Shown: positions 12,178-56,872 of the stretch, piece by piece
Position numbering within the stretch: the stretch's first letter is position 1
Layout of the letters: each line of letters opens with the position of its first letter
DNA from: Endomicrobiales bacterium
Lineage (GTDB): Bacteria > Elusimicrobiota > Endomicrobiia > Endomicrobiales > JALOBY01
Direction of reading: 5' to 3'
NCBI GenBank assembly: GCA_963796955.1
Contig: CAWCNJ010000008.1
Coordinates: 288,001-352,000, forward strand
Length of the DNA stretch: 64,000 nucleotides
Translations under genes and position numbers: made by a program
The notes under the pieces: model-generated
Told to the model about the DNA's origin: nothing
The model's input: the letters and a program-made list of their open reading frames with translations, nothing else
The model's database searches: none

Positions 12178-13296
12178 ATGCGTCTATCAGACATCCTTAA
12201 AAACACCGGTGGCAATCAAAAACCGGCCGTCCCACAGGCGGCGCCCGCGCCCGTCTCACCCTCAGCACAACAACCCGATTTCAGACCAACCCTGTCGCAA
12301 ATGCCCAAAGCAGAAGCCCCCAGTGTTACCTCCCAGGATAACATCCTTGCCGCCTCAAATGTGTATACTAAAGCCATCAGCGAAGCAAAAACCCTTATCA
12401 ACTCAATAAGTAACGACAGCACCACCACCGACCCGATCACCTGCACTGAGCAGATCGTAAAACTTCTTGAAAACTCGAATGATGACCTGGTGATCCTTGC
12501 CGACCGCGCAACGCCCGATGTTTATCTCTACGGCCATAGCGTGAATGTGTGCATCTATTCCACCATGATGGGCAAAGGCATGGGGATGGACCATGACAAA
12601 TTAGTGCGTCTGGCGAATGCCGCCTTTTTCCATGATGTATGCCTTTCAAAACATTTGATGCTTATAATGAAGAACGGAAAGCTTGCCCAGGAAGAGGTAA
12701 ACTCTGTCCATGCCATATCGCCGCAGTGCTCTAAACTTATAGAGACGGCTATTTCAACGTTCACGCCGCTGGTGAAAACAGCGATCCTTCAAGTAATGTA
12801 CTCAATGAACGAGCGCAAATACGGCAGCCGGGAGATACCCGCCGAGCTCAACGAGGAAAACACCGAGTTCGTAAAGCTCATAACCATTACCGATATTTAT
12901 GAAGCGCTGACGCATCCGAGGCCGTACCGCGACCGCTTTCTGCCGCACGACGCGATAAAAACGATGATCAGCACGGCAGAGAACAACTTTGATCCGGTGC
13001 TGTTGAAATCCTTTATCGAAATTATTTCCTTATATCCGCTGGGCAGCTACGTCCGCCTTAACACCGACGAGATAGCCCGCGTGACCGGCGTGAACCGGGG
13101 ACTGCCCACGCGCCCGAAGATCCTTATTATCACCGACCCGTCCGGTGCGCGCCAGCCGCAAGCCAAGTTCGCGGACCTTGCCGCCTCACCAATGCTGTTC
13201 GTCAAAGAGGCCCTCGACGAAACAAAGCTTAAGCTTGCCGATAAAAAACTCATGCTGGAGCTGAAAGCCATCCGCTGGTGGGTAAAATCACTCTAA
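12178..13296 (+). CDS. HD-GYP-like protein with degenerate active-site motifs
   Basis: GHSVNV, FFHDV, DIYEALTHPRPYR, FDP..YPLGSYVRLNT..RP; HHExxDGSGYP is replaced by MNERKYGSREIP. Confidence 0.75.
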   Translation: MRLSDILKNTGGNQKPAVPQAAPAPVSPSAQQPDFRPTLSQMPKAEAPSVTSQDNILAASNVYTKAISEAKTLINSISNDSTTTDPITCTEQIVKLLENSNDDLVILADRATPDVYLYGHSVNVCIYSTMMGKGMGMDHDKLVRLANAAFFHDVCLSKHLMLIMKNGKLAQEEVNSVHAISPQCSKLIETAISTFTPLVKTAILQVMYSMNERKYGSREIPAELNEENTEFVKLITITDIYEALTHPRPYRDRFLPHDAIKTMISTAENNFDPVLLKSFIEIISLYPLGSYVRLNTDEIARVTGVNRGLPTRPKILIITDPSGARQPQAKFADLAASPMLFVKEALDETKLKLADKKLMLELKAIRWWVKSL

Positions 13297-14105
13297 TGCC
13301 GCGCATTGTCCTGAAGATCGGACCGATAGCAGTATCCATCCACACGAACGAACCCGCCTGGCACCCGCTGCTTAAAGAACGTTACAAAAGTTTTTTAATT
13401 AAAAAACCATTAAAGGCCATTGCCAGCATAGAGCTGAAGACAGCTGAAGAGCGTACCGGCAAACGACAGCTCACGGTAAAGAGTACCCTCGACGGTCACG
13501 AAATATCCCGAAACGATTTCCACTCAACCTCTGATATGTACTTCAAAAGAACAAGCCTTTCATGCCTTCCAAATGTTTACTCCTTTGATTCGTGGCTGAG
13601 GGTATTCATAACTGCCGCGTATAGCACCAGGGGTATGGTATTGGTGCACGGGGCCTCTACCGGTTTTCGCCGTAAGGCCTATCTGTTCGCGGGCGTATCG
13701 GGGCGGGGCAAATCGACCATCACACGGAAGCTCGGCATTGATGCCGCTTTGAGCGATGAACTGACCCTTTTGTCGACAAAGGGGAAGAAAGTTTTCGCCC
13801 ACAGCACACCCTTCTGGGGTGAATTAGCCCGGCCGGAAACTGCAGGGCCTGTCTCATTGCCGCTGGGCCGCATATACTATTTAAAACACGGTCCCAAACT
13901 CAGCGACCGGAGTTTAACGCCGGCAGGATCATTTGCATATTTTATGACGACCATACTATTTTTTTCGACCGATGCGGGATCCGTTAACGGCATGCTGGAT
14001 ACGGCAGTCAATATAATAAAACATACCGGGGCCGCCACCCTTGCTTTTTCACTCAAGACCGGGCGCGAACAGATATGCAGATTATTGGAGGAACGTCTCT
14101 CATGA
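13296..14105 (+). CDS. HPr-kinase-related P-loop protein (RiPP-associated kinase-like)
   Basis: LVHGA, LFAGVSGRGKST, LSDE, TPFWGE motifs; ATG overlaps upstream TAA (TAATG), so a start at 13296 is preferred to 13278. Confidence 0.75.
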   Translation: MPRIVLKIGPIAVSIHTNEPAWHPLLKERYKSFLIKKPLKAIASIELKTAEERTGKRQLTVKSTLDGHEISRNDFHSTSDMYFKRTSLSCLPNVYSFDSWLRVFITAAYSTRGMVLVHGASTGFRRKAYLFAGVSGRGKSTITRKLGIDAALSDELTLLSTKGKKVFAHSTPFWGELARPETAGPVSLPLGRIYYLKHGPKLSDRSLTPAGSFAYFMTTILFFSTDAGSVNGMLDTAVNIIKHTGAATLAFSLKTGREQICRLLEERLS

Positions 14106-14368
14106 CGAAAGAACACATGTACCGGATAAAACCGGGCCTTGCCTGGCGCGTGATAGGGGAAACGGCCTTCGTCTTCGACCCGGCGAGATCGGAACTCCAT
14201 GAATTAAGCGAGTCAGCCACCGTGATCTGGCAGAGCCTTGATAAAAACGGTTCCGCCAACACAGCCGCGAAACGAATTTCCGACGAGTTCGACGTAACTG
14301 TCGAACGGGCGCTCCGCGATACGGGAACGCTGTTGACGGATCTTCAGGCACTGGGATTGATAGAATAA
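14102..14368 (+). CDS. PqqD-family RiPP recognition element (RRE)
   Basis: 88 aa; WRVIGETAFV..LHELSESATVIWQSLD..ISDEFDV..DTGTLLTDLQALGLIE; GGAGG RBS and ATGA overlap. Confidence 0.85.
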   Translation: MTKEHMYRIKPGLAWRVIGETAFVFDPARSELHELSESATVIWQSLDKNGSANTAAKRISDEFDVTVERALRDTGTLLTDLQALGLIE

Positions 14369-14369: not shown

Positions 14370-15404
14370 ATGCCAAATGTCATGGACAAGCTGTTTGCGT
14401 ATACGCAGAGACAACGCATCCCGCTGATGTGCACCTTTGAACTGACCAAAAACTGTAACCTGCATTGCCGCCACTGCTATATCCCGCACAGAGAACGCAC
14501 GCAAAAAACGCTTTCCACCGCTCAGATCATGACTGCGCTCGACCAGCTGGCACGCATGGGAACGCTGTACCTGGTTTTCACCGGGGGCGAGATCTTTCTC
14601 AGGAAAGATCTGCCGGCTCTGTGCAGACATGCCCGGAAGCTGCATTTTGATATCCGCCTTTTTACGAACGGGACCCTGTTGACGCCTGCCATGGCGAAAC
14701 AACTTGCCCGGGTCGGCGTAAGCGCGGTAGAAATTAGCATATACGGAAAACCGGACACACACGATGCTATTACCGGTCACACAGGCTCTTGGAAAAGATC
14801 GATGGATTCGATCAAAACTCTGCAAAAGCACGGCCTTAAAGCGGTCATTAAAATGCCGCTGATGACTGAAAATTATGAAGATAAAAAATACATTGAAGCG
14901 CTTTCAAAAAAACTTAATGTTAAACTTCAACTAGACGCTGTTATAACAACAATGTCGGATGGAAACAAAACACCATTATCAATGCGGCTGTCTGGAAAAA
15001 CCCTTCAAAAAATATTTAGATCCCACGACAACGGAACAGCCCCGGATGCCGGCGAAACAGACCTGATATGTTCAGCAGGAAGGAATATGCTGGCAATAGC
15101 GGCGAATGGTGATCTGTTGCCATGTATTCAACTGCCGTTTAAGCTAGGAAATATAACAAAAAGAACGATCCCTGGTTTATGGAATAATAATAAGCTCCTC
15201 GTTAAAAAATTGTTATCTATCAAGGCCTCCGATATTGCCGAGTGCAAGGAATGCGCGATGGTCTCACAGTGCCAACGGTGTCCGGGAATGGCACTGGTTG
15301 AAGACGGCTCTCTGTCCGGGCCATCGACCGCGGCCTGTTTATTGACCAGGGCAAGATATGGCAGCAAAACACCAACTAATCTAAATATTAGATCACATTC
15401 ATGA
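14370..15404 (+). CDS. Radical SAM/SPASM peptide maturase
   Basis: CNLHCRHC, FTGGE, TNG, HDAITG..GSW; SPASM Cys set CSAG..GDLLPC..CKEC..C..CP..C. Confidence 0.92.
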   Translation: MPNVMDKLFAYTQRQRIPLMCTFELTKNCNLHCRHCYIPHRERTQKTLSTAQIMTALDQLARMGTLYLVFTGGEIFLRKDLPALCRHARKLHFDIRLFTNGTLLTPAMAKQLARVGVSAVEISIYGKPDTHDAITGHTGSWKRSMDSIKTLQKHGLKAVIKMPLMTENYEDKKYIEALSKKLNVKLQLDAVITTMSDGNKTPLSMRLSGKTLQKIFRSHDNGTAPDAGETDLICSAGRNMLAIAANGDLLPCIQLPFKLGNITKRTIPGLWNNNKLLVKKLLSIKASDIAECKECAMVSQCQRCPGMALVEDGSLSGPSTAACLLTRARYGSKTPTNLNIRSHS

Positions 15405-15570: not shown

Positions 15571-15720
15571 ATGACACTTAGAAAGAAGCGAAAACCTTAC
15601 CTCCCACCCAAAATTTCATCACAAAAAGTAATTGAGACCGCGGCTCTTGCCTGCGGTAAATGTATAGGCGGAAATCCAATATATCAGGCGGCTTGTAGAA
15701 GTTTTTCTAAGATGTCCTAA
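15571..15720 (+). CDS. Putative RiPP precursor peptide, 49 aa: MTLRKKRKPYLPPKISSQKVIETAALACGKCIGGNPIYQAACRSFSKMS
   Basis: Translated by hand (below the ORF-track cutoff); GAGGAG RBS 6 nt before ATG; basic N-terminus plus YxxP RRE-binding-type motif; Cys-containing core; next to RRE, rSAM and peptidase genes. Confidence 0.85.
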   Translation: MTLRKKRKPYLPPKISSQKVIETAALACGKCIGGNPIYQAACRSFSKMS

Positions 15721-15743: not shown

Positions 15744-18700
15744 ATGAGCGACACGAAAGTATTCTTAGCGACCGGCGGATCCATGCGGCCCCTGTTTTCT
15801 TCGGGTGAGCCGGTCTGGGCTGTTCCTATATCGAATAGTGAGGCGCTGCGTCCAGGTGATATTGTTATATATACGCGCGCGCGCGCAAAGTTTATGCACC
15901 GCGTTCTGTCCGTATCCGGTGACACATGCACAGTATTCAGCGACTCAGCCGTCTGCCAGCCACACACCATATCGGTCAATTCTATAATCGCAAAACCAAT
16001 TAGCCGCATGCAGGGAACACACGGCCTCCTCTGGGGCCTGGCCTGTAACGCGTTCTATCAGGTCTCCCGTTTTCTTAAACACCGCGCCTCCAGAATTTTA
16101 TCGGTTGCCGCCGTCTTAACTATTGCCTACTGCCTATTGCCTCTTACTTCACAAGCATATACCCGCGTTAAAACCGTTGAATTCAATTTCGGCGGCTATT
16201 ACTCGGCCACAAACGTTGCCAGCTGGACGCCGCCCTACGTTACCATAAACCTGCCGGATGCTATCGCTTCATCTCCCATCAAGGACGCGGTGCTTGATAT
16301 TCAATACCAATCGATCCCTGCCGTCACAAACAAGGACAGTCCAACTACTGCTATCGACGTACTATTCTCAACAGGCAATGCCGCCGGTGGAGCAGCTATA
16401 GACGGCATTGGTACGGGCGTTACTATGCCCACAAGTTCCAGAAAGAACGACATTATGTGCCTGCGTTTTGATGCAACATCAAAAATGACGGCCTGGAGCA
16501 ATACGCCGTATAGCATGAAAATAACCCTTACGGGCAGTAACGGTATTTTGTACAACTTGTATTCAGCCAAGCTGTTCATCACTTACTACTATGATGATAC
16601 GGCAACAACACAGGTAAAAACCGTACACTTTCCGCTTTTTTCGACGTCCGCAGACGGCAAGTCCGGCGTGGCATCCTACCTTGCCCAAAGAGGCAACACA
16701 ACAAGCGCGCTTTATTACGATGCTGAAATACCGGAAATATCCTTCACGCGCAAGCAGGCATGGTTCGAGGTGCGCGGATATCGCCAATCCGGCGGTTCCG
16801 CGACTGACGGCACGATATACGCCAAGATCGGCGCAAATGCCAAACAGGGAACAACGACGCTTGACGGTTCTATGACTGGCTCCTACTGGATCAGGTACCT
16901 CACATCTACCGGAACACCTGCGGGTTTCGCTGAAAACACATACCAGACGCTTAACGTGGTAACCGCTACCAATGCCACCATGAATGTTCTTGGCGGTGAA
17001 CTGGTGGAGACCTACGAGTATAACGCCACAACATTCCCGCAGGAAAAAACTCTTAACTACTTCTTGTGCCAGTCTACCGGCGGCGCCAGCGACCCGGCGA
17101 ACTTCACGGTACCGCTGTATATTAACGAATCCACCGTCACAATAAAACGCATTTACGCCCTGATGTATGGTTCTTATAACAACACCGGCGCTGCCCTGAA
17201 CCTTACCGTGAACTCTAAGATCAAGGGCCAGGCCCTTACAGCGCGGACCTATTCGCTGGCAACAACGGTAACACAGGCGTCAGGCTTTGTGCTTTATCAC
17301 GACCTTACGCAGGGGGCAACCTGGTGGGTGAACGGCTCCTCAGTAACGTTGTCATGGAACGCTAACGCCAACCTTGGCGGTATCGGCGCTGAACTGATAG
17401 TAACTTACACCTACAACAACGACGACTCCTTTACAGACTCTTACAGGATCTGGGGCGGGGAAACCACTAACCAGGTCACGAACGGCACTTATTACAACTC
17501 GAATTTAAACCTGTACTTCCCTGATCCTGAAGTGCCAACCGGCAAGAAAACACTCAGGTCGGCATTTTTCAGATATAATTTTATTCAGGGCGATTCCGCG
17601 GTCACAGCCAACCCGCAAACGACGATCGGCGTCAACGGCTCTGTTCCCGACAGGCAGGTGGTTCAGCACTACGGCACCACAGAAAACTTCCACGCTGTCG
17701 CATTATATGATTTTACCAAAAACATAACACCTGCCAGCACAACTGTTGCCGGAAATTTTACTTTGTCGAACGATCCATTCAATACAGCGGGCATAGCGTC
17801 AGTCATTTACGAGTACAAGCCGGTGCCGGTCGCGCCTTCGGCTTTGACCCAATACCAAAATGATGACGTTACGATAATGCCCCTGGGCGATTGGGAAAAC
17901 CTGCAGGGAAAACATTTAAGATTTACATTTTCAAGTAAAATAACGGGCGATTCCTTATACCCTGTTGTAGAAGTTAAGCCGGCTGCCGGTTCCTTCGACG
18001 GCATTACGAACCTTTCGACCGGAACGGTTCAAACCTATAACGGCTCTTCTCTATCGGCTGATATTTTCATAAGCACGGGCCAGGGTGCGTATCAATGGCG
18101 CGCATCGGTTGTTGGGAGCGCCGGCCGCTCGGCATGGACAAATTTCGGAGCGCCCGGCACTACACACTTCGGCATAGACCTTTCTACACCGGCCATTCCA
18201 GTCCTCGCGACGCCATCAAGCGGAACCGCGACATCAGATCAAACACCAACGCTTACATGGAACGCCTTGACAGATACCGGCGGGTCAGGACTAAGCGGTT
18301 ACCTGCTTCAAATAGCTACTTCGACAAATTTTAACCCGGTGTTTTATAGCTCTATTACTGCAAACACCTCATTCACCTCTACCTTTACCTGGACGCAAGC
18401 ACCCTATTATTGGAGAACACGGTCCCAGGACGCGGCAGGCAACTTCAGCGCGTATTCAGACACTTGGACGATAATTATCGACTCGACGCCGCCGCTGCAG
18501 GTTACAACCTACTTGGCGCCAGCTAATCAGGCATTCAGCTCATCAACGATCCAGACATTCAGCTGGGCTTCCTCCACCGACACGCCGGCTGGGGTCCAAA
18601 ACTACATACTGCAACTTTCTACGGCCGCTGATTTTTCCGCTATTGCTTACTCGTCGGTAACAGTCTCGACCGGCGCAGTAATGAACATTACGCAATCATC

Positions 18701-21700
18701 ATATACGTGGCGCGTTAACGTGCAGGATTGGGCGAACAACTACACAACATCAACACTGAAATACAGCGTGGTGATAGATTCCTCGCCACCGCCTCCGGTA
18801 ACAACGATATCAACTCCGTCTGACGACTCTGCCTCCAATGTGCAGCTCCAAACTTTCAACTGGACAGGTGTTGTCTCATTACCCGCCCCAACCAAGGCGT
18901 ATTTTCTGCAGGTTTCAACGGCGCCGGATTTCTCGGTCATCAACTATTCATCAGCTACTGCAACAAATAGCGCGCAGTTGACACTTAATCAGTCATCCTA
19001 TACCTGGCGCGTGAATGTGCAGGATTACGCGTTGAATTACACGACGAGCCCGGCAGTCTTTCATGTGATCGTCGATACTACGCAACCGGCACAGGTGACA
19101 AATTATATTGCTCCGGGCAACCAGGTGTTCAGTTCAACTACATCCACTACGTTTTCCTGGTCGGCCTCCACCGACACGCCTGCCGGCATTAAAAATTACA
19201 TCCTTCAGCTGTCGACGGCACCGGATTTCAGCGGCACGATCATATCTTCAACGACGCCGGCCTTAAGCGCCCAGATGTCTCTGAGCCAGTCGTCTTATAC
19301 CTGGCGCGTAAACGCCCAGGACTGGGCTAACAACTACACAACCTCGACCTTAAAATACAGCGTCGTTATCGACTCATCACCTCCGCCGCAGATAACTACG
19401 TTATCTACGCCGTCGAACGGCCTGGCGACAAACACCCAGACACAGACCTTCAGCTGGGTGGGTGTGGCATCTTTCCCTGCGCCGATACAAAACTATATAC
19501 TGCAGCTGTCAACTGCGGCTAATTTTACGGGTACGATAATCTCATCTGTTACCGCTGCGACAAGCGCCGTGCTCACGCTTAACCAGTCGTCTTACACCTG
19601 GCGAGTTAACGTGCAGGACTACGCCCTGAATTACACTACCAGCGCAGCGACCTTCAACCTTGTTATCGACACAACACCGCCGCCGGCGGTTTCTACATTA
19701 CTGGGTCCTTCGCCGGACGGCCTTGCCTCAGCCACTACTACGCAGGTGTTCTCCTGGACGGGAGTGACGGATACGCCTGCGCTGGTTAAAAACTATATCG
19801 TTCAAGTTTCGACCGCGGGGGATTTCTCTAAGATCGCATATTCCTCAGTAACCGCGAACACCAGTGCCACGATCGCGCTTATCCAGTCTTCGTACACCTG
19901 GCGTGTGAATGTTCAGGATTATGCCTTGAATTACACAACCTCACCCTCCGTTTATCATATCGTTATAGATACGACGCCGCCACCGGCCGTATCCACGCTC
20001 AATGGCCCTGCTAACAATGTTCCAGTTAACAACCTTAACCAAACATTCTCCTGGACCGGCGTAACAGATCTTCCGTCGATGTTGAAGAATTACATAGTGC
20101 AGCTTTCGACTGCGTCTGATTTCTCCAAGATAGCCTACTCATCCGTAACCGCGCTCAACAACGCGACTATCAGCCTGAACCAATCCTCCTACACCTGGCG
20201 CGTAAATGTGCAGGACTATGCCCTGAACTACACCACTTCATCCGCCGTATTCTTTGTGCTGGTTGATACCACCCTGCCCGTTATTACGAATTTGCAGGCA
20301 GGGGACGCAACGTGGCGAAGCGCTCCTGGCAACACCTACAACGTCCAATTTGGCGACCAGGGCTTCGCTCAGTCAAAGCTTAATTCCATCCAGTACGAAG
20401 TTATCACCGCTACCGGCTTTACGGCTATCCCCTGGACTGACATAGCCGCGCCGCCCATCAACCAGCCGACATATGTAACGCCGTGGCAAGTGAACTTTAA
20501 CGCCCTGGTAGAGGCGGTTACTAATTTCGTCTCCATTCGCGCGACGGATTTGGCGGGCAATACGTCAACGTATACCAACGCCTTCTACGTGCTGAAAGAT
20601 GTGTCCGTGCCGAGTATCGTGGACAATCAATTCGGTGATACCATCTGGCGCAACGCCGCGGGCGCCACATATGACCTGGATTTCTTTGATAACGGCGGAT
20701 CGGGCATCGACCATGTAAATTACAGCGACACATACTATGTGAACAATACTCCCGGCGCCTCAGTCTTTACGAATCGCACACTCATATCGCAGGCAACCCT
20801 GAACGCGACCACTTCGTACATCACCACATGGCAGATACCCGATTTCAATCTGCTGTTGGAAGGGAAAAACTTTATCGGCGTTACCGTCTATGACCGTGCG
20901 GGCTTAAGCCAGACGCTGTCAAGCTATCCGGAACCTTTCTACATTTTAAAAGATACAACGGCGCCGACGATAATAAACGGGCAGGCCGGCGACAACACAT
21001 GGCGGCCAGCCAACACAGGTCAGTACAATGTTGACTTTCAGGATGCCTCAAGCGGTTCGGGCGTTGCGGGCTTTGATATGCTGGCTTCCACCGTCGCGGG
21101 AGGCACGCAATCCCTGTTAATACCCTGGACGCAGGTGCTCTCAACCAACACCTACCTCTATACACAGTCGTGGCCCATTCCAGACGCGGTATTTACCGCG
21201 CTTCGCTCAGGCCACGAGCCGAACCGCATATCGCTGCGCACCTACGATTTTGCAGCTAACACCTCTGCGGTAACAACAGATGCCTTTTATATCCTGAAAG
21301 ACACGATCCCACCGACCATGTCTAACAACCAGGCAGGAGATAACACCTGGCGGACACTGGGCGGCACAACGTACAACGTCGGCTTTGCCGATGCTGAATC
21401 GTGGGCTGCTGGAGCGCGCTACACCGTGCGCAACGGGCCGACGACCGGAGACACGGAATGGGCGCCCAGCTGGCAGCCGATCTTCTCTTCGACCGGAACA
21501 CCGTCCTATAACACGAACTGGCAGCTAGACTTTAATAGCTTATGGGGAGCCACTAACTATGTATTCGTTCAATACTGGGATGTGGCCGGAACAACAATAA
21601 CACCGACAACGCCTGTCTTCTATATTAAAAAAGACAATGTCGCTCCGACGGTACAGAACAATCAATCCGGAGATAACACGTGGCGCAATGCGCCGGGAAC

Positions 21701-24700
21701 CGCCTACGACGTAGACTTCCAGGACTCCATATCAGGCGTTTCTCAGGCAGACTATATGGTGAAAGACGCTGTCGGCAACACCGTGATCCCCTGGACAAAT
21801 ATATTTACAAACCCGGCAGGGCAAGCGTCATACACCACCAACTGGGCCTTATCCGTCGCCACCTTTACCGCGCTGCTTGATGGCGCATCGAACTTTGTGT
21901 ATGTGCGGGACTACGACGTCGCCGGAAACCTTACGGCGCCCGTCAATCCGCAATTTTATATCCTTAAAGATACAGACCTGCCGACGGTGCAACTTGGCGC
22001 CCAACGATACTTCATGTCCTCACACGATCTTGGCCTGCAAAACTATCCTGATTTCTTCGATCCAAAAAACAGCCGAACACCGGGGGCGTCCGGCCTTGCC
22101 TCTATACAGTATTACATATCTACCGGTACCGCGATGACCGGCACTGCGGTTGAGAACTGGACATCTATAGCGGGACTTACCCCCGGGACCACCTGGTTTA
22201 CCAACCAGTGGTCGGTCAACTTCGCCCCTCTGCCCGGAGCGACGACATGCTACGTTTCTGTTCAGGCTACCGATCTTGCCGGGAACACAACGATCTTTAT
22301 GGATGCCTTCAGGGTTTTCAAATCAACGATCCCGGCCCCTGTGATCACCGACAACCAGACCGGGGATTATACCTGGTATACCTCTTCAAATTCATTCACT
22401 ACCAAGCAATATGATGTCGATTTTCGATCCTTCGATAACGATAACATTTCATCTGTCACCGTTCAGTCTTGGAGCGGACTGGCACAGACTGGCTCTAAGT
22501 ACGTTGACTGGACCGCCGTTGTTTCCACCGGTACGGTATTGTCCTACACCCAGAACTGGACATTGACACCCGCACCCTTCACCGGCTTTGCACCGGAATA
22601 TATCTGGAACCTGCTGCATGAAGGCACCAACTACATCACTGTCCAAGCATACGATATGGCCTTGGACTCCAGCACTAAGCAAGATGCCTTCTTTGTCCTG
22701 AAAGACACCAACGGCCCAACGATCACCAACAACCAGTCAGGCGATCTTACTTGGCGCAACGCGGTCGGTACTACCTATAACGTCGATTTCCAGGATTTGA
22801 TATCGGGCACGACCGAGGCGGATTATCTTATTAAAGATGGTTCAGGCAACCAGCTCCTCGGCTGGACCCCGGTATTCACTAATTCGGGCGGTGTGGGAAG
22901 CTACACCACGGACTGGCCGATATCGGCCGGGGCCTTCACTGCACTGCCCGACGGTTCCACCGGGTACGTTTACCTGCGCTCGTTCGATAAGGCCGGCAAT
23001 GCAACCACGAATCTCACACCGTCCTTCTACATCCTGAAAGACACAGACACACCGTTCATCAACGTAGCCGCCCAGAAGTACTACATGTCTTCGCACGACT
23101 TCAGCCTCAAGAACTATGCCGGCTTCTTTGACCCTAAGAACAGCTATACGCCCGGCGCTTCAGGATTGAACACGATCCAGTATTTTATTTCTACCGGCAC
23201 AGCCATGACCGGAACACCGGTTAAGAACTGGACGACTATCCCCGGCTTAACGGTGGGGACAACGTGGTTCACTAATAACTGGCAGATCGATTTCGCCTCC
23301 CTGCCAGGCGCGGTGACCTGCTACGTTTCGCTTTCCGCCGCTGACCTTGCAGGCAACACCTCAACTTTTGTTGACGCCTTCAGGGTCTTTAAGTCCACTA
23401 TAGCCGCACCGGTGATTACCGATAACCAGACCGGCGATTACACCTGGTATACCTCTTCAAATTCATTTACCGCCAAGCAATATGACGTCGATTTCCAATC
23501 CTTCGATAACGACTACATTTCATCCGTTACCGTTCAAGCTTGGAGCGGCCTTGCACAAAGCGGCTCTAAATATGTTGACTGGACCGCCGTTGTTTCTACC
23601 GGCACCGTATTGTCTTATACCCAGAACTGGGCGTTGTCGCCCGCACCCTTCACCGGCCTTGCGCCTGAATACCTCTGGAACCTGCTGCATGAAGGCACCA
23701 ATTACATCACCGTCCAGGCATACGATATGGCCTTGGATTCCACCACGAAACAAGATGCCTTCTTCGTCTTGAAAGACACCAACGGCCCAACGATCACCAA
23801 CAACCAGTCAGGCGACAACACCTGGCGCAATACGGTCGGCACTACCTATAACGTTGATTTCCAGGACTTGATATCAGGTACCACTGAAGCTGATTACATG
23901 ATCAAAGACGGCTCCAATAATCAACTCCTCGGCTGGACCCCGGTATTCACTAATGCCGGCGGTGTGGGAAGCTACACCACGGACTGGCCGATATCGGCCG
24001 GCGCCTTCACCGCACTACCGGACGGTTCGACCGGCTACGTTTACCTGCGCTCGTTCGATAAGGCCGGCAATGCAACCACGAATCTCACACCGTCCTTCTA
24101 CATCCTGAAAGACACAGACACACCGTTCATCAACGTAGCCGCCCAGAAGTACTACATGTCCTCGCACGACTTCAGCCTTAAGAACTATGCTACCTTCTTT
24201 GACCCTAAGAATAGCTTTACACCCGGCGCTTCCGGTTTGAACGCTATCCAATACTTTATCTCCACCGGCACCGCCATGACAGGCACACCGGTGAAGAACT
24301 GGACAACCATACCAGGCCTAACGGTGGGAACAACATGGTTTACAAATAACTGGCAAATAGACTTCGCTGCCCTGCCGGGCGCTGTTACCTGCTACGTATC
24401 TGTCTCAGCCGCCGATCTTGCCGGCAACACCTCAACCTTCGTTGATGCCTTCAGGGTCTTTAAGTCCACTATAGCCGCACCGGTGATCACCGACAACCAA
24501 TCTGGCGATTACACATGGTACACCTCTTCAAATTCATTCACCGCCAAGCAATACGATGTCGATTTCCAATCCTTCGACAACGACTACATTTCATCCGTTA
24601 CCGTCCAAGCCTGGAGCGGCCTTGCACAAAGCGGCTCTAAATATGTTGACTGGACCGCCGTTGTTTCTACCGGCACCGTATTGTCTTATACCCAGAACTG

Positions 24701-27700
24701 GGCGTTGTCGCCCGCACCCTTCACCGGCCTTGCGCCTGAATACCTCTGGAACCTGCTGCATGAAGGCACCAACTACATCACTGTCCAAGCATACGATATG
24801 GCCTTGGATTCCAGCACTAAGCAGGATGCCTTCTTCGTCCTGAAGGACACCAACGGCCCAACGATCACCAACAACCAGTCAGGCGACAACACCTGGCGCA
24901 ATACGGTCGGTACTACCTATAACGTTGATTTCCAGGACTTGATATCAGGTACCACTGAAGCTGATTACATGATCAAAGACGGCTCCAATAATCAACTCCT
25001 CGGCTGGACCCCGGTTTTCACTAATTCGGGCGGGGTGGGAAGCTACACCACGGACTGGCCGATATCGGCCGGGGCCTTCACTGCACTGCCCGACGGTTCC
25101 ACCGGGTACGTTTACCTGCGCTCGTTCGATAAGGCCGGCAATGCAACCACGAATCTCACACCGTCCTTCTACATCCTGAAAGACACAGACACGCCGTTCA
25201 TCAACGTAGCCGCCCAGAAGTACTACATGTCCTCGCACGACTTCAGCCTTAAGAACTATGCTACCTTCTTTGACCCTAAGAATAGCTTTACACCCGGCGC
25301 TTCCGGTTTGAACGCTATCCAATACTTTATCTCCACCGGCACCGCCATGACAGGCACACCGGTGAAGAACTGGACAACCATACCAGGCCTAACGGTGGGA
25401 ACAACATGGTTTACAAATAACTGGCAAATAGACTTCGCTGCCCTGCCGGGCGCTGTTACCTGCTACGTATCTGTCTCAGCCGCCGATCTTGCCGGCAACA
25501 CCTCAACCTTCGTTGATGCCTTCAGGGTCTTTAAGTCCACTATAGCCGCACCGGTGATTACCGATAACCAGACCGGCGATTACACCTGGTATACCTCTTC
25601 AAATTCATTTACCGCCAAGCAATATGACGTCGATTTCCAATCCTTCGATAACGACTACATTTCATCCGTTACCGTTCAAGCTTGGAGCGGCCTTGCACAA
25701 AGCGGCTCTAAATATGTTGACTGGACCGCCGTTGTTTCTACCGGCACCGTATTGTCTTATACCCAGAACTGGGCGTTGTCGCCCGCACCCTTCACCGGCC
25801 TTGCGCCTGAATACCTCTGGAACCTGCTGCATGAAGGCACCAATTACATCACCGTCCAGGCATACGATATGGCCTTGGATTCCACCACGAAACAAGATGC
25901 CTTCTTCGTCTTGAAAGATACCAACGGCCCAACGATCACCAACAACCAGTCAGGCGACAACACCTGGCGCAACGCGGTCGGCACTGTTTACAACGTCGAT
26001 TTCCAAGACCTGATATCGGGCACGACCGAGGCTGATTATCTTATTAAAGACGGTTCAGGCAACCAGCTCTTCGGCTGGACACCGGTATTCACTAATGCCG
26101 GCGGTGTGGGAAGCTACACCACGGACTGGCCGATATCGGCCGGCGCCTTCGCCGCCCTGCCTGACGGCTCGACAGGATATGTGTACCTGCGCTCGTTCGA
26201 TAAGGCCGGCAATGTTACCACCAACGCCTTGCCTTCCTTCTACATACTTAAGGACACTGATGTACCGACCGTTCAAGTAAATGGTCAAACATTTTTCCAG
26301 GGCGCCTACCAATTCGGCGCAATACACGACGTGGATTTCTTTGACCCGAAAAACAGCAACACACCGGGGGCATCTGGCCTTAGTTCTATCCAATACTTCA
26401 TTTCCACCGGGCCTGCCATGACAGGAACGGTCATGAAGAATTGGACGTCTATCCCTGGCTTAGTAACAGGCAGCACGTTTTACACAACAAACTGGGCAAT
26501 AGATTACACCGCTCTAACGCAGCTGGTCACCGGATACGTATCGGTACAAGCGGTCGACCAGGCAGGCAATACTACAACGTACCTGGACGCCTTCCGGGTA
26601 TTAAAAACCACCGCGACCGCACCCTTGATATCCAATAACCAGACAGGGGATTTCAAATGGTATGGCTCATCAACAGCCATGCTTTCATCAACCTACAATA
26701 TGAGCTTCCAGTCGATAGCGGGCCCCGCTGTATATATCTCGTCGGTTTCTGTTCAGATATACAGCAAACCCGGAAGTTCAGGCACAAAACTGGTGGATTG
26801 GACAACCGTTGTTTCCACAGGCAATGTATTAACATATTCTGTCCCGTGGCAGTTGAAACCGTCAACATGGACAACCCAGCCCGATTATTTCTGGAATTTG
26901 ATGCAAGAAGGTACAAACTATATTTCTGTACAGGTGCTGGACATCAATGCGGATTCTGCAACGGCAACAGATGCATTTTTTATTCGAAAAGACACAACAA
27001 CTCCCGGCATTATAAACAATCAAACAGGCGACAACGTCTGGCGCAACACAGCTGCGGCGGTATACGACGTCGATATAAATGACCTTACGTCAGGAACCAC
27101 TGAGGCTGATTACAAAATAATGGACGCTTCCAAAGTCACTACATTGGTTGACTGGACCCCGTTCTTAACCAACCCCACAGGCGTTAAATCGCAAACCGCG
27201 AATTGGGGAATAAACCCTGCTGATTTTGCCCAGCTACCAAGCGGCGCCACAAGCTATGTTTATGTTCGGGCCTTCGACCTGGCAGGCAATACCACGCAGC
27301 CTATCAACGCACAGTTTTATATTCTGAAGGACACAAATGTACCGACAGTGTCGGTAAACGCTTCAAACTACTACCTCTCGTCGCGTGACTTTGGAACTCA
27401 GAACTATGCCGGTTTCTATGACCCGCTGGTACAGGGCAGAACACCTGGCGCGTCAGGGTTGAACGCTATCCAATACTTTATCTCTACCGGCACCGCGATG
27501 ACCGGCACGCCGGTTAAGAACTGGACGGCAATACCCGGCTTAACGGTGGGGACAACGTGGTTCACTAATAACTGGCAGATCGATTTCGCCTCCCTGCCAG
27601 GCGCGGTGACCTGCTACGTTTCGCTTTCCGCCGCTGACCTTGCAGGCAACACCTCAACTTTTGTTGACGCCTTCAGGGTCTTTAAGTCCACTATAGCCGC

Positions 27701-29606
27701 ACCGGTGATCACCGACAACCAATCTGGCGATTACACCTGGTACACCTCTTCAAATTCATTTACCGCCAAGCAATATGACGTCGATTTCCAATCCTTCGAC
27801 AACGACTACATTTCATCCGTTACCGTCCAAGCCTGGAGCGGCCTTGCACAAAGCGGCTCTAAATATGTTGACTGGACCGCCGTTGTTTCTACCGGCACCG
27901 TATTATCTTACACCCAGAACTGGGCGTTGTCGCCCGCGCCCTTCACCGGCCTTGCGCCGGAATATATCTGGAACCTGCTGCATGAAGGCACCAACTACAT
28001 CACTGTCCAAGCATACGATATGGCCTTGGATTCCAGCACTAAGCAGGATGCCTTCTTTGTCCTGAAAGACACCAACGGCCCAACGATCACCAACAACCAG
28101 TCAGGCGACAATACCTGGCGCAACGTCGTCGGCACTGTGTATAACGTCGATTTCCAGGACTTGATATCGGGCACGACCGAGGCGGATTATCTTATTAAAG
28201 ACGGTTCAGGCAACCAGCTCTTCGGCTGGACCCCGGTATTCACTAATGCCGGCGGTGTGGGAAGCTACACCACGGACTGGCCGATATCGGCCGGGGCCTT
28301 CACTGCACTGCCCGACGGTTCCACCGGGTACGTCTACCTGCGCTCGTTCGATAAGGCCGGCAATGCTACCACGAATCTCACACCATCCTTCTACATCCTG
28401 AAAGACACAGACACGCCGTTCATCAACGTAGCCGCCCAGAAGTACTACATGTCCTCGCACGACTTCAGCCTTAAGAACTATGCTACCTTCTTTGACCCGA
28501 AGAATAGCTTTACACCCGGCGTTTCCGGTTTGAACGCTATCCAATACTTTATCTCTACCGGCACCGCGATGACCGGCACGCCGGTTAAGAACTGGACGGC
28601 TATCCCCGGCTTAACGGTGGGGACAACATGGTTCACTAATAACTGGCAGATCGATTTCGCCTCCCTGCCGGGCGCAGTGACCTGCTACGTTTCGCTTTCC
28701 GCAGCTGACCTTGCAGGCAACACCTCAACTTTTGTTGACGCCTTCAGGGTCTTTAAGTCCACTATAGCCGCACCGGTGATTACCGATAACCAGACCGGCG
28801 ATTACACCTGGTACACCTCTTCAAATTCATTTACCGCCAAGCAATATGACGTTGATCTCCAGTCCTTCGATAACGACTACATTTCATCCGTTACCGTCCA
28901 AGCCTGGAGCGGCCTTGCCCAAAGCGGCTCTAAATATGTTGACTGGACCGCCGTTGTTTCTACCGGCACCGTATTATCTTACACCCAGAACTGGGCGTTG
29001 TCGCCCGCACCCTTCACCGGCCTTGCGCCTGAATACATCTGGAACCTGCTGCATGAAGGCACCAACTACATCACTGTCCAAGCATACGATATGGCCCTGG
29101 ATTCCAGCACTAAACAGGATGCCTTCTTTGTCCTGAAAGACACCAACGGCCCAACGATCACCAACAACCAGTCAGGCGACAACACCTGGCGCAATACGTT
29201 CGGCACAACCTACAATGTTGATTTCCAAGACTTAATATCGGGCACGACCGAGGCGGATTATCTTATTAAAGACGGTTCAGGCAACCAGCTCTTCGGCTGG
29301 ACCCCGGTATTCACTAATTCGGGCGGCGTGGGAAGCTACACCACAGACTGGCCGATATCGGCTGGCGCCTTCGCCGCCCTGCCCGACGGTTCCACCGGGT
29401 ACGTCTACCTGCGCTCGTTCGACAAGGCCGGCAATGCTACCACAAATCTCACACCATCATTCTTTATCTTGAAAGATACCGATGCACCAACGGTAACGGT
29501 CGCGGCGCTAAATACTACATGTCATCGCATGATCTGGGACTTAAGAACTACACGAACTTCTATGATCCGCTGGTCGCCGGAAGGTCCCCGGGTGCTTCCG
29601 GCCTGA
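15744..29606 (+). CDS. Fragment 1 of the giant gene: S24/S26 peptidase, internal signal peptide and repeat domains
   Basis: GGSMRP..GDIVIY..HRV; KHRASRILSVAAVLTIAYCLLPLTSQA; reading leaves the repeat consensus after ~29509. Confidence 0.8.
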   Translation: MSDTKVFLATGGSMRPLFSSGEPVWAVPISNSEALRPGDIVIYTRARAKFMHRVLSVSGDTCTVFSDSAVCQPHTISVNSIIAKPISRMQGTHGLLWGLACNAFYQVSRFLKHRASRILSVAAVLTIAYCLLPLTSQAYTRVKTVEFNFGGYYSATNVASWTPPYVTINLPDAIASSPIKDAVLDIQYQSIPAVTNKDSPTTAIDVLFSTGNAAGGAAIDGIGTGVTMPTSSRKNDIMCLRFDATSKMTAWSNTPYSMKITLTGSNGILYNLYSAKLFITYYYDDTATTQVKTVHFPLFSTSADGKSGVASYLAQRGNTTSALYYDAEIPEISFTRKQAWFEVRGYRQSGGSATDGTIYAKIGANAKQGTTTLDGSMTGSYWIRYLTSTGTPAGFAENTYQTLNVVTATNATMNVLGGELVETYEYNATTFPQEKTLNYFLCQSTGGASDPANFTVPLYINESTVTIKRIYALMYGSYNNTGAALNLTVNSKIKGQALTARTYSLATTVTQASGFVLYHDLTQGATWWVNGSSVTLSWNANANLGGIGAELIVTYTYNNDDSFTDSYRIWGGETTNQVTNGTYYNSNLNLYFPDPEVPTGKKTLRSAFFRYNFIQGDSAVTANPQTTIGVNGSVPDRQVVQHYGTTENFHAVALYDFTKNITPASTTVAGNFTLSNDPFNTAGIASVIYEYKPVPVAPSALTQYQNDDVTIMPLGDWENLQGKHLRFTFSSKITGDSLYPVVEVKPAAGSFDGITNLSTGTVQTYNGSSLSADIFISTGQGAYQWRASVVGSAGRSAWTNFGAPGTTHFGIDLSTPAIPVLATPSSGTATSDQTPTLTWNALTDTGGSGLSGYLLQIATSTNFNPVFYSSITANTSFTSTFTWTQAPYYWRTRSQDAAGNFSAYSDTWTIIIDSTPPLQVTTYLAPANQAFSSSTIQTFSWASSTDTPAGVQNYILQLSTAADFSAIAYSSVTVSTGAVMNITQSSYTWRVNVQDWANNYTTSTLKYSVVIDSSPPPPVTTISTPSDDSASNVQLQTFNWTGVVSLPAPTKAYFLQVSTAPDFSVINYSSATATNSAQLTLNQSSYTWRVNVQDYALNYTTSPAVFHVIVDTTQPAQVTNYIAPGNQVFSSTTSTTFSWSASTDTPAGIKNYILQLSTAPDFSGTIISSTTPALSAQMSLSQSSYTWRVNAQDWANNYTTSTLKYSVVIDSSPPPQITTLSTPSNGLATNTQTQTFSWVGVASFPAPIQNYILQLSTAANFTGTIISSVTAATSAVLTLNQSSYTWRVNVQDYALNYTTSAATFNLVIDTTPPPAVSTLLGPSPDGLASATTTQVFSWTGVTDTPALVKNYIVQVSTAGDFSKIAYSSVTANTSATIALIQSSYTWRVNVQDYALNYTTSPSVYHIVIDTTPPPAVSTLNGPANNVPVNNLNQTFSWTGVTDLPSMLKNYIVQLSTASDFSKIAYSSVTALNNATISLNQSSYTWRVNVQDYALNYTTSSAVFFVLVDTTLPVITNLQAGDATWRSAPGNTYNVQFGDQGFAQSKLNSIQYEVITATGFTAIPWTDIAAPPINQPTYVTPWQVNFNALVEAVTNFVSIRATDLAGNTSTYTNAFYVLKDVSVPSIVDNQFGDTIWRNAAGATYDLDFFDNGGSGIDHVNYSDTYYVNNTPGASVFTNRTLISQATLNATTSYITTWQIPDFNLLLEGKNFIGVTVYDRAGLSQTLSSYPEPFYILKDTTAPTIINGQAGDNTWRPANTGQYNVDFQDASSGSGVAGFDMLASTVAGGTQSLLIPWTQVLSTNTYLYTQSWPIPDAVFTALRSGHEPNRISLRTYDFAANTSAVTTDAFYILKDTIPPTMSNNQAGDNTWRTLGGTTYNVGFADAESWAAGARYTVRNGPTTGDTEWAPSWQPIFSSTGTPSYNTNWQLDFNSLWGATNYVFVQYWDVAGTTITPTTPVFYIKKDNVAPTVQNNQSGDNTWRNAPGTAYDVDFQDSISGVSQADYMVKDAVGNTVIPWTNIFTNPAGQASYTTNWALSVATFTALLDGASNFVYVRDYDVAGNLTAPVNPQFYILKDTDLPTVQLGAQRYFMSSHDLGLQNYPDFFDPKNSRTPGASGLASIQYYISTGTAMTGTAVENWTSIAGLTPGTTWFTNQWSVNFAPLPGATTCYVSVQATDLAGNTTIFMDAFRVFKSTIPAPVITDNQTGDYTWYTSSNSFTTKQYDVDFRSFDNDNISSVTVQSWSGLAQTGSKYVDWTAVVSTGTVLSYTQNWTLTPAPFTGFAPEYIWNLLHEGTNYITVQAYDMALDSSTKQDAFFVLKDTNGPTITNNQSGDLTWRNAVGTTYNVDFQDLISGTTEADYLIKDGSGNQLLGWTPVFTNSGGVGSYTTDWPISAGAFTALPDGSTGYVYLRSFDKAGNATTNLTPSFYILKDTDTPFINVAAQKYYMSSHDFSLKNYAGFFDPKNSYTPGASGLNTIQYFISTGTAMTGTPVKNWTTIPGLTVGTTWFTNNWQIDFASLPGAVTCYVSLSAADLAGNTSTFVDAFRVFKSTIAAPVITDNQTGDYTWYTSSNSFTAKQYDVDFQSFDNDYISSVTVQAWSGLAQSGSKYVDWTAVVSTGTVLSYTQNWALSPAPFTGLAPEYLWNLLHEGTNYITVQAYDMALDSTTKQDAFFVLKDTNGPTITNNQSGDNTWRNTVGTTYNVDFQDLISGTTEADYMIKDGSNNQLLGWTPVFTNAGGVGSYTTDWPISAGAFTALPDGSTGYVYLRSFDKAGNATTNLTPSFYILKDTDTPFINVAAQKYYMSSHDFSLKNYATFFDPKNSFTPGASGLNAIQYFISTGTAMTGTPVKNWTTIPGLTVGTTWFTNNWQIDFAALPGAVTCYVSVSAADLAGNTSTFVDAFRVFKSTIAAPVITDNQSGDYTWYTSSNSFTAKQYDVDFQSFDNDYISSVTVQAWSGLAQSGSKYVDWTAVVSTGTVLSYTQNWALSPAPFTGLAPEYLWNLLHEGTNYITVQAYDMALDSSTKQDAFFVLKDTNGPTITNNQSGDNTWRNTVGTTYNVDFQDLISGTTEADYMIKDGSNNQLLGWTPVFTNSGGVGSYTTDWPISAGAFTALPDGSTGYVYLRSFDKAGNATTNLTPSFYILKDTDTPFINVAAQKYYMSSHDFSLKNYATFFDPKNSFTPGASGLNAIQYFISTGTAMTGTPVKNWTTIPGLTVGTTWFTNNWQIDFAALPGAVTCYVSVSAADLAGNTSTFVDAFRVFKSTIAAPVITDNQTGDYTWYTSSNSFTAKQYDVDFQSFDNDYISSVTVQAWSGLAQSGSKYVDWTAVVSTGTVLSYTQNWALSPAPFTGLAPEYLWNLLHEGTNYITVQAYDMALDSTTKQDAFFVLKDTNGPTITNNQSGDNTWRNAVGTVYNVDFQDLISGTTEADYLIKDGSGNQLFGWTPVFTNAGGVGSYTTDWPISAGAFAALPDGSTGYVYLRSFDKAGNVTTNALPSFYILKDTDVPTVQVNGQTFFQGAYQFGAIHDVDFFDPKNSNTPGASGLSSIQYFISTGPAMTGTVMKNWTSIPGLVTGSTFYTTNWAIDYTALTQLVTGYVSVQAVDQAGNTTTYLDAFRVLKTTATAPLISNNQTGDFKWYGSSTAMLSSTYNMSFQSIAGPAVYISSVSVQIYSKPGSSGTKLVDWTTVVSTGNVLTYSVPWQLKPSTWTTQPDYFWNLMQEGTNYISVQVLDINADSATATDAFFIRKDTTTPGIINNQTGDNVWRNTAAAVYDVDINDLTSGTTEADYKIMDASKVTTLVDWTPFLTNPTGVKSQTANWGINPADFAQLPSGATSYVYVRAFDLAGNTTQPINAQFYILKDTNVPTVSVNASNYYLSSRDFGTQNYAGFYDPLVQGRTPGASGLNAIQYFISTGTAMTGTPVKNWTAIPGLTVGTTWFTNNWQIDFASLPGAVTCYVSLSAADLAGNTSTFVDAFRVFKSTIAAPVITDNQSGDYTWYTSSNSFTAKQYDVDFQSFDNDYISSVTVQAWSGLAQSGSKYVDWTAVVSTGTVLSYTQNWALSPAPFTGLAPEYIWNLLHEGTNYITVQAYDMALDSSTKQDAFFVLKDTNGPTITNNQSGDNTWRNVVGTVYNVDFQDLISGTTEADYLIKDGSGNQLFGWTPVFTNAGGVGSYTTDWPISAGAFTALPDGSTGYVYLRSFDKAGNATTNLTPSFYILKDTDTPFINVAAQKYYMSSHDFSLKNYATFFDPKNSFTPGVSGLNAIQYFISTGTAMTGTPVKNWTAIPGLTVGTTWFTNNWQIDFASLPGAVTCYVSLSAADLAGNTSTFVDAFRVFKSTIAAPVITDNQTGDYTWYTSSNSFTAKQYDVDLQSFDNDYISSVTVQAWSGLAQSGSKYVDWTAVVSTGTVLSYTQNWALSPAPFTGLAPEYIWNLLHEGTNYITVQAYDMALDSSTKQDAFFVLKDTNGPTITNNQSGDNTWRNTFGTTYNVDFQDLISGTTEADYLIKDGSGNQLFGWTPVFTNSGGVGSYTTDWPISAGAFAALPDGSTGYVYLRSFDKAGNATTNLTPSFFILKDTDAPTVTVAALNTTCHRMIWDLRTTRTSMIRWSPEGPRVLPA

Positions 29607-55351: not shown

Positions 55352-56872
55352 ATGAAACATTTTACGCTGTTTTTCTTAACATTGACATTGATCTCAACCC
55401 CGGCTTTTTCTGTTGAGATACACCCCAAAGCCGGCACTACCGCCGCTACTTTCTTAACGCTCGGGGCGGGAAGCAGGGCTGCCGCCATGGGCGGTGCCTT
55501 CGCGGGATTGGCCGACGACGTGACTGCGCTTTACTGGAACCCGGCCGGTCTTGCGCGTCTGGCGAATACGGAAGTCCATCTGACGCACAATGAACAGTTC
55601 GAAGGTATCAGGCAGGATTTTGCCGGCTACGCGACGCCGTTCGGCAAGGGTGTTATCGGCGGTGCGCTGTACGGTCTTTACACGCCGGTAGACATTGAAC
55701 GGCGTTCCGGCAACAGCGAGAACGATCCGTTCATGCCGCTCTCCAATTCTGAAGGGTTATTCGGCGCTTACGACACAGCCGCCCAGCTCTCTTACGCGCG
55801 TGTCATTAACGGACGTCTTTCAGCCGGGGCGAGCCTGCTGGCCATTTCGCAGACTATTGACAATTACACCGCCTACGGCGCAGCCATGGATCTTGGCCTG
55901 CAGTACGGATTGAAGGACAAGCCGGTAAGCCTGGGACTCGCCCTGCAGCATATCGGCACGCCGATAAAATTTATTTCGAAAAGCTACGACCTGCCCTTTA
56001 ACGTTAAGGCCGGCGGCGCCTGGTTCCCGAAACCAAATTTGAAGGTGACCTGTGACTTGAACCAACCGATAGACAACTGGCTTTCCGCCTCACTAGGCTC
56101 GGAATACTGTCCCAATAGATACCTTGCCCTCCGGGCGGGATACAATTATCTTTTGTACGGCCAGCCGCTTGGTGATGCCGCCGGCATCGCGGCCGGCGTC
56201 GGTTTTATCATACCGTGGCAAAAATACATAATAACGGTCGATTATGCCTTTCAACCCTACGGCGTGCTTGGCAACTCGAACCGTATTTCCGTCGGCATAG
56301 AATTTCCCGGCCGCGCGCCCGTGCGCCCGGCGCCGATATCCGCGCCGTCTAACACAACCGCGCCGGTAAAGGTTTCTACAACCTCCGCTGTTACCATTCA
56401 GGCGCCACCGCTTCCCTCGATCTCTCCGATCTCGCAGGCCGGCGCCACAGGTGCGGATTTCACCGTTCATGCAACTTCGACGACAGTAGAGCTTCGGCAG
56501 ATAGCCGGAAGGACCGTTATTTACTCGATCAAAGCTGAAGCAGCAACGGGTGACATCCGCCGTCTTACCGCAATGGCACGCTCTCAGGCTCTGCTGAGAG
56601 AGGTATCGATCAAGTTTTCCCAGGAACGAACGTCTTCCGACGGTAAAGCCGGAACGTACCGGCGCTATATGATCGAAAAGAATTGCCCCGCGCAGTTCTC
56701 TAACATCACTATTGAAATGAGCCTGCCGGTATCCCTGCACGAGCCTTTCATCAGGTCAAAGGAAGCCGGCTCGCCCATACTGCCGCGCGTGATCTCCAAA
56801 GAAAATGATTCGGCTACGTACCAATTCACCTTGCCGTCGTTAGAGCCGTTCTCAGTGGAGACCCATGAGTGA
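55352..56872 (+). CDS. PorV/PorQ-like (UPF0164) outer-membrane beta-barrel with a C-terminal extension
   Basis: FLTLGAGSRAAAMGGAFAGLADDVTALYWNPAGLA, DLGLQY, LALRAGY, VDYAF..LGNSNRISV, then a Pro/Thr linker and an extra domain. Confidence 0.82.
   Translation: MKHFTLFFLTLTLISTPAFSVEIHPKAGTTAATFLTLGAGSRAAAMGGAFAGLADDVTALYWNPAGLARLANTEVHLTHNEQFEGIRQDFAGYATPFGKGVIGGALYGLYTPVDIERRSGNSENDPFMPLSNSEGLFGAYDTAAQLSYARVINGRLSAGASLLAISQTIDNYTAYGAAMDLGLQYGLKDKPVSLGLALQHIGTPIKFISKSYDLPFNVKAGGAWFPKPNLKVTCDLNQPIDNWLSASLGSEYCPNRYLALRAGYNYLLYGQPLGDAAGIAAGVGFIIPWQKYIITVDYAFQPYGVLGNSNRISVGIEFPGRAPVRPAPISAPSNTTAPVKVSTTSAVTIQAPPLPSISPISQAGATGADFTVHATSTTVELRQIAGRTVIYSIKAEAATGDIRRLTAMARSQALLREVSIKFSQERTSSDGKAGTYRRYMIEKNCPAQFSNITIEMSLPVSLHEPFIRSKEAGSPILPRVISKENDSATYQFTLPSLEPFSVETHE

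Follow-up and report, generated by a model that had tools for sequence, protein, structure and literature searches.

LppS, a SipW-like and RRE-dependent leader peptidase, is encoded by Bacillota clusters for linear polyphosphorylated peptide, or LPP (Popov et al. 2026, PMC13381572). According to the accessible part of that report, LppS docks onto the RRE through an N-terminal helix and cuts the RRE-bound leader after F-3 E-2 T-1, a reaction that needs S29, H68, and D93. In SEC11A, which like SEC11C and SipW is an S26B enzyme, Asp122 completes the catalytic triad and Asp116 pairs with Arg97 (available portion of 10.1101/2020.11.11.378711). The terminal serine of another peptide, pseudomycoidin, is phosphorylated and hexosylated (accessible part of PMC6993621). 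Giant proteins of Omnitrophota, a related group, have peptidase domains of other families (C39 and S8) at the N-terminus, near their signal peptides, and these are proposed to cut the giant itself; the sections of that report available to us mention neither S24/S26 nor PqqD (10.1101/2023.11.21.568195). Here we describe a locus of Elusimicrobiota that bears likeness to all of these systems and in which an S26-type peptidase is fused in frame to a giant exported protein. An N-terminal fusion of this kind to an exported giant is not described in the literature that we searched; the kind of enzyme itself has been known since May 2026. The search found no description of the fusion or of the Elusimicrobiota cluster in open-licence literature, subscription papers being outside its scope.

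The locus lies in a 64-kb window (the whole stretch of DNA that was analysed), where a forward-strand frame starting at 15744 is open to 29606, over 4620 codons; stop codons occur throughout 15744-16200 in both other forward frames. The sequence-only reading had placed an S24/S26 peptidase in frame ahead of the giant protein's signal peptide, and our analysis confirmed this arrangement: the GGSMRP motif gives Ser13 (15780-15782), the HRV motif gives His52 (15897-15899), the peptidase domain comprises residues 1-113, and a signal sequence follows directly with no stop codon between the two. The peptidase core (residues 1-90, 15744..16013, + strand), which has an S26/signal peptidase I fold with Ser13, His52, Arg53, and Asp67, is followed by an amphipathic helix (residues 91-112, 16014..16079, + strand; hydrophobicity 0.66, moment 0.51) that is helical in the AlphaFold model, forms the C-terminus of stand-alone peptidases too, and has a basic end that doubles as the n-region of the signal. 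The internal signal peptide (residues 112-138, 16077..16157, + strand) begins with KHRASR (112-117), continues with a hydrophobic stretch (118-134; Kyte-Doolittle 2.0 over 19 residues), and ends in S-Q-A at residue 138 (base 16157), with a predicted cut after Ala138 (S-Q-A/Y). By inspection and hydropathy it has the features of a Sec/signal peptidase I substrate, namely a basic n-region, a hydrophobic h-region, and a c-region with small -3 and -1 residues. A cut after residue 138, as the earlier reading had proposed, would fit the hydropathy, the small residues at -1 and -3, and the ordinary signal peptides that match in position in stand-alone orthologs. Mean identity across the internal signal segment is 21%, yet the segment is hydrophobic in 9/9 fused copies. 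A promoter and terminator scan of 15300-16300 returned chance-level results.

The fusion of the peptidase to the giant exported protein is real, a judgement based on the recurrence of the same fusion in relatives. The giant's first mature domain, used as the query over 301 Elusimicrobiota genomes, was present in 29 of them. Peptidase and giant are fused in seven of these (G000, G003, G005, G006, G007, G009, and G013), which represent six families of one order; the peptidase gene is separate but directly ahead of the giant in eight, giving 15/29 genomes with fused or adjacent genes and 22/29 in which the genes are kept apart (unfused). In the other 14 the peptidase lies elsewhere, on another contig in six cases. 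Scans of collections yielded 42 loci (14 genome, 28 metagenome), 11 of them fused, with L061 and L062 as the new sequences among these. A search for the same fusion beyond the window found it in six further genomes and two metagenome loci, an outcome opposite to the one (homologues never fused) that the earlier reading had named as refuting. The mature domain gave a tree of 29 rows, from which L062 and G063 were omitted as too short; in it the eight fused rows group as a single clade (support 96/88). One full-length fused protein of 4,161 aa (P0180) occurs on 13 contigs. These observations bear on the reading that an assembly error joined two genes, or that translation of the fused frame begins solely at an internal start, for instance the ATG at 16008. 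Contigs of the one DNA run found, with a share of 0.05, cover 15695-15856 but not the junction, four breaks lie further down the same gene, and an ATG is present at residue 89; set against these are the fused copies with the join at the same place in the other genomes and metagenome loci, the 13 contigs carrying one fused protein, and the lack of conservation of internal starts. We consider this reading hardly credible.

The giant's own start codon has largely disappeared from fused copies. An ATG in frame and 16-50 codons before the mature motif is found in 20/21 stand-alone giants versus 1/9 fused ones; the in-frame ATGs of the window genome (residue 89) and G003 (residue 94) lie just outside this range, and G006 has no ATG, GTG, or TTG anywhere from residue 60 on. 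The mature motif falls at residue 136-146 in 7/7 fused copies, a nearly fixed linker length. Judged from these comparisons, the fusion is old and has a stable linker length. It may have arisen when a stand-alone peptidase gene was joined to the next gene, the basic C-terminal helix of the peptidase becoming the n-region of the signal.

Whether the fusion benefits the cell is a separate question. Given that the fusion is real, we see an even chance that it is neutral, that is, a read-through accident tolerated as signal peptidase removes the extension; this would leave the role of the enzyme unchanged and is compatible with the explanation that we favour below. The 22/29 unfused genomes and the variety of passengers agree with neutrality, as do one-off, long-linker fusions (P0074 and P0049), one of which retains the old Met. 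The fusion has been kept in six families even as passenger identity fell to ~53%, which argues against neutrality, as does the nearly fixed linker; yet with the giant's ATG lost, reversal would be hard and the fusion would be locked in even without benefit. The earlier reading's idea of leader removal being hard-wired to export by the fusion, taken as something the system needs, is not supported in that form, given the unfused majority and the fact that other passengers are also fused.

These other passengers are diverse. In G089 (two identical assemblies), a peptidase of the same subfamily, located after the same precursor, is fused to a BNR/sortilin exoprotein, and in P0109 the peptidase precedes the leader of a type IV prepilin (this is a single record that could be an error). 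The subfamily's occurrence in these two contexts indicates that the passenger is exchangeable. At the prepilin leader of P0109, a cut would free the peptidase into the cytoplasm. P0169 is a more distant type fused to a Kelch exoprotein, and P0074 and P0049, the long-linker fusions to the giant, branch outside the main clade; all three are single records that could be errors. The long linker of P0049 (residues 110-230) resembles a translated intergenic repeat, suggesting either read-through in progress or an error; we take this repeat to be similar to REP-type elements. At L114:7791-10571 an independent fusion of the peptidase to a BNR/sortilin exoprotein is followed by two PorV-like genes, and the giant of G089 (L032:436-1500) has ~300 extra secreted-looking residues ahead of its usual first domain. 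A more distant S26 type occupies the N-terminus of frames of 735-777 aa with repeats, near rSAM genes (L129:4151-6484 and L131:4740-6947); the L129 frame also has a beta-helix domain. Among the best 150 representatives, 18 of the 143 new ones were at least 200 aa long, P0109, P0169, P0074, and P0049 being among these. This search overturned the result of a weak earlier test for longer homologues, in which a 17-sequence profile found 0 among 7,999 candidates of 213-2000 aa.

Searches with the single peptidase sequence scored below cut-off for Pfam S24 (PF00717; E 0.0055, 16.8 vs 23.3) and for TIGR02228, archaeal signal peptidase I (E 5e-6, 26.5 bits vs a cut-off of 51.85). A profile built from 44 sequences matches human SEC11C/A (E 8e-8). 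The AlphaFold model (pLDDT 95.8, pTM 0.87) resembles signal peptidase I and LexA folds, with a Foldseek match to SpsB (E 5.9e-4, TM 0.71, rmsd 1.7) and structural matches to SipA, LexA, and LepB at Z 8.8-9.8 (VIA LepB, Z 8.8, rmsd 1.6, 84 aligned). Residues 1-113, as modelled, have the S26/S24 signal-peptidase fold. Ser13 and His52 align with S56 and H96 of SEC11A, and the Ser and His are 39 residues apart here as in LppS, which is likewise a homolog of archaeal-type signal peptidases (accessible part of PMC13381572). Across the 44 sequences the nucleophile position is Ser in 32, Cys in 12, and nothing else, and the His is invariant. The Cys form (GGCMRP) occurs in L019:38-376, L021, L023, L024, L030, L034, L035, L037, and others; 7/12 Cys-type peptidases pair with Q or H in place of T in the F-E-x motif of the leader.

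The acidic residue is less straightforward. Position 73, which corresponds to the triad Asp (D122 of SEC11A, D93 of LppS, the latter mapped from the spacing of residues and with the help of a primer listed in supplement file 4 rather than by aligning LppS), is never Asp among the 44 and is Pro in 23, and an Asp occurs within 4-8 residues after Asp67 in only 6/44. Asp67 itself is invariant and by spacing sits at the place of SEC11A Asp116; one HMM alignment puts the DD motif on D121/D122 and another on D116, with spacing favouring D116. Position 66 is Asp or Asn in 34/34 unfused copies and Asp in 4/9 fused ones, and is Ser in the window copy. In the fold, the Ser/His pair, the His-Arg sequence, and an Arg-pairing Asp (Asp67 read as Asp116), the domain resembles SEC11A/C and SipW; it differs from these S26B enzymes, as described in the available portion of 10.1101/2020.11.11.378711, in having no N-terminal membrane anchor, a predicted cytoplasmic location, and no Asp122 equivalent. 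Some other acid, brought close in three dimensions, may substitute for the triad Asp. Only 12 residues precede the Ser in 9/9 fused copies, no stretch among these is hydrophobic enough for an N-terminal anchor, and none of these nine has a counterpart of the N-terminal helix with which LppS docks onto the RRE. Compared with LppS (accessible part of PMC13381572), the enzyme described here is fused to the signal peptide of an exoprotein, lacks counterparts of D93 and the docking helix, has Cys for Ser in 12/44 sequences, and comes from another phylum.

With the third catalytic residue and the docking helix of LppS lacking counterparts, catalytic activity, which the sequence-only reading had assumed, is a prediction: conservation of the Ser/Cys-His pair in 44/44 speaks for it, and the unconserved triad Asp of LppS and SEC11 speaks against it. 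Alternatively, the domain may act as a peptide-binding module with little or no catalytic activity, in the manner of SipA of streptococcal pili, keeping the precursor, or else a signal peptide, at the membrane while a different protease cuts the leader. The absent triad Asp, the loss of Asp66 in 5/9 fused copies, and the missing docking helix are in line with such a module, and SipA ranks first by Z among the structural matches (Z 9.8, with LexA and LepB tied to within 1). The nucleophile is nevertheless always Ser or Cys beside an invariant His, exchange between the two would point to a nucleophile that is used, and no other leader peptidase was seen in the cluster; we regard this alternative as unlikely. 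Decay of the fused domain was also considered and rejected: when rSAM identity is matched, the divergence of fused cores does not exceed that of unfused ones, which also speaks for activity (mean core identity 0.37, 0.42, and 0.54 fused vs 0.34, 0.47, and 0.55 unfused in three rSAM identity bins, the pairs being non-independent).

The topology of the fused protein bears on which substrate the peptidase could reach. Membrane-spanning hydrophobicity is limited to one segment (118-134) in 6/7 fused copies; that of helix 91-112 reaches 1.64 in G007. Two membrane passes with the domain outside were rejected, since helix 91-112 is amphipathic and not spanning in 6/7. With a single spanning segment, the peptidase domain is predicted to be cytoplasmic, the location given in the earlier reading, and the S-Q-A site periplasmic. 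Residues 118-134 would act as an internal signal-anchor with the N-terminus in, a LepB-type housekeeping signal peptidase I would cut after Ala138 to free the giant into the periplasm, and the 138-residue peptidase would be left cytoplasmic with a membrane stub, perhaps trimmed further. The genome encodes two separate PF10502 signal peptidases above cut-off, and either might make this cut. RsiV has a cytoplasmic N-terminal domain. In this membrane protein, whose function is cytoplasmic, signal peptidase cuts at an internal, signal-like site as a regulatory step (accessible part of PMC4183432), a cut similar to the one proposed here.

A dedicated signal peptidase for the giant, in the style of SipW and TasA, would instead cut at S-Q-A/Y in cis or in trans. 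Its archaeal/ER-type homology is consistent with such a role, as is its presence in 29/29 giant-bearing genomes, fused or adjacent in 15, and in G062 it stays with the giant rather than with the precursor. However, the domain is N-terminal to the sole clear membrane segment, which would place it on the opposite side from the cut, the stand-alone copies have neither signal nor anchor, 14/29 giants are not beside the peptidase (six being on other contigs), passengers differ, and a peptide precursor gene precedes the peptidase in nearly all genomes of the subfamily. We find this role quite improbable.

The genes upstream of the peptidase point to a peptide pathway. A gene for an HprK-related kinase-like protein (275 aa, 13278..14105, + strand; weak matches to TIGR04249/04355/04352, all below cut-off), which is predicted to phosphorylate the precursor and is kept upstream of PqqD in most loci, is followed by genes for a stand-alone RRE of the PqqD family (88 aa, 14102..14368, + strand; PF05402, E 3.7e-12) and a radical SAM/SPASM enzyme (344 aa, 14370..15404, + strand; PF04055, E 1.6e-28; PF13186, E 3.4e-9; CxxxCxxC at 29). 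The likely substrate is a 49-aa precursor peptide (15571..15720, + strand) with a YxxPxI leader, [FIL]-E-T, and then AALA-CGKC...C...S, whose gene ends 24 bases ahead of the peptidase start. Among 51 distinct precursor homologues, all have [FIL]-E (followed by T in 35, S in 2, and Q/K/H/E in 14), three Cys, and a terminal Ser; Y10, P13, E22, L26, C28, K30, C31, P36, C42, and S49 are invariant in the 44 that were aligned. A tRNA-Gly(CCC) lies at 11827-11899, just before the cluster, and an HD-GYP-like gene (12178-13296) heads the cluster in many loci, a hint of cyclic-dinucleotide control.

Further downstream of the giant are an NTP_transf_5 nucleotidyltransferase gene (56865..57755, + strand; PF14907, E 1.8e-22), an ABC pair, and Wza/Wzc-like genes (60244-63866). 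Judged by description, NTP_transf_5 is the family type of LppN/PsmN clusters, and its gene likely belongs to the same peptide pathway. The kinase, the nucleotidyltransferase, and the three-Cys, Ser-ending precursor together suggest a thioether-linked, phospho-sugar-capped peptide. The cluster shares with LPP clusters, as set out in the accessible part of PMC13381572, a stand-alone RRE, a kinase like HprK, an NTP transferase, a YxxP leader with an end that may correspond to F-E-T, and polysaccharide genes nearby, here the Wza/Wzc-like ones. It differs in having a radical SAM/SPASM enzyme and a core with three Cys and a C-terminal Ser, and in lacking the phosphorylated Ser+3 of LPP; LPP clusters in turn have a linear core, an MsbA-like exporter, and no cross-linking enzyme, and no MsbA-type exporter was seen here (PMC13381572, same part). 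With paeninodin and pseudomycoidin it shares the HprK-like kinase, the nucleotidyltransferase, and a precursor with a terminal Ser, but a radical SAM enzyme and an S26-type peptidase take the place of the lasso cyclase and B2 protease, neither of which is present (accessible part of PMC6993621).

Gene order links the peptidase to this precursor. Of 53 genomes with a profile match, 42 contain this subfamily and 11 contain more distant S26 types. The precursor gene lies directly upstream of the peptidase in 40/42 subfamily genomes; the exceptions are G145, at a contig edge, and G062, where the peptidase gene stands before the giant and the genes for the RRE, the radical SAM enzyme, and the precursor are ~45 kb away. 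No such precursor was present beside the peptidase in the 10 inspected of the 11 distant-type genomes. In 48/49 loci, chosen for having both genes, the peptidase starts -6 to 124 bases from the precursor stop. This gene order and the fusion of related domains to other exported proteins favour a peptide role, and the domain most likely serves the neighbouring peptide as a leader peptidase, a reading drawn from comparative analysis for which LppS offers an experimental precedent (accessible part of PMC13381572). The RRE would present the 49-residue precursor, and the cut would most likely fall after [FIL]-E-T (residue 23), as with LppS. This site is our best guess because [FIL]-E is found in 51/51 precursors, with T in 35, in the register of the LppS cut (F-3 E-2 T-1). 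Against it, Q, K, H, or E takes the -1 place in 14/51, and the distance from YxxP to the motif is two residues shorter than in LPP. A-L-A/C, with small -1 and -3 residues in 51/51, is the second candidate; it was rejected as the first choice since three nearby sites fit 50-51/51 under this loose rule and the LppS precedent favours F-E-T.

We put the probability of the mechanism as a whole at roughly 0.6: a peptidase located ahead of the giant's signal and left in the cytoplasm by the cut after Ala138 would trim the 49-residue peptide. The analysis shows an in-frame fusion conserved within a single clade, and also the fold, gene order, and loss of the giant's ATG; from these we infer the rest. 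As a consequence of the fusion, one peptidase chain would be made per giant chain. The presence of the peptidase in all 29 giant-bearing genomes, which are kin and thus non-independent, links the peptide cluster and the giant whether fused or not, and it fits a role for the giant too.

The mature giant exoprotein (16158..52780, + strand; ~12,200 codons if read through) contains Ig/FN3-like repeats, lamin-tail domains, and a C-terminal PQQ-type propeller. It is in pieces in this assembly, with breaks near 29.5, 30.0, 37.5, and 45.7 kb (29500-30100, 37467, and 45690-45830) that amount to three frame changes and one in-frame stop. These are probably assembly errors, as giants of relatives have open frames of 8,800-10,500 codons. 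Fragmentation also affects further giant genes of the genome (C4, C6), which suggests long-read errors. No Pfam match to a T9SS C-terminal sorting domain was found on the four giant pieces; the next gene (52796-55339) encodes a T9SS-type C-terminal domain, and a PorV-like barrel gene then follows. Within 52500-53600, PQQ-type propeller blades close the giant and another propeller of this type opens the next protein; the two proteins may pair.

A further-reaching reading treats the peptide pathway and the giant as parts of a single machine. The giant's signal peptide would bring the peptidase to the export channel, and for each giant a cross-linked peptide with a phospho-sugar cap would be released locally and would bind or decorate it, for example at the terminal propeller; the fusion, having recurred in separate lineages, would be a selected coupling, and the peptidases of the subfamily would work with a Ser/Cys-His dyad. 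We consider this rather unlikely.

In the fused protein, a single bacterial chain would have two functions, with a predicted cytoplasmic enzyme extending the signal peptide that belongs to a protein of >1 megadalton, and signal prediction restricted to the N-terminus would probably miscall such giants as cytoplasmic. The locus also yields a small soluble test enzyme; its cut site is predicted, and it occurs naturally in Ser and in Cys versions that lack the usual triad Asp. The fusion provides physical evidence, stronger than gene neighbourhood, tying RRE/kinase/S26 peptide clusters to surface proteins, a question left by the LPP report (accessible part of PMC13381572). If the explanation that we favour is true, peptide maturation in these bacteria would be tied to the production of a surface protein.
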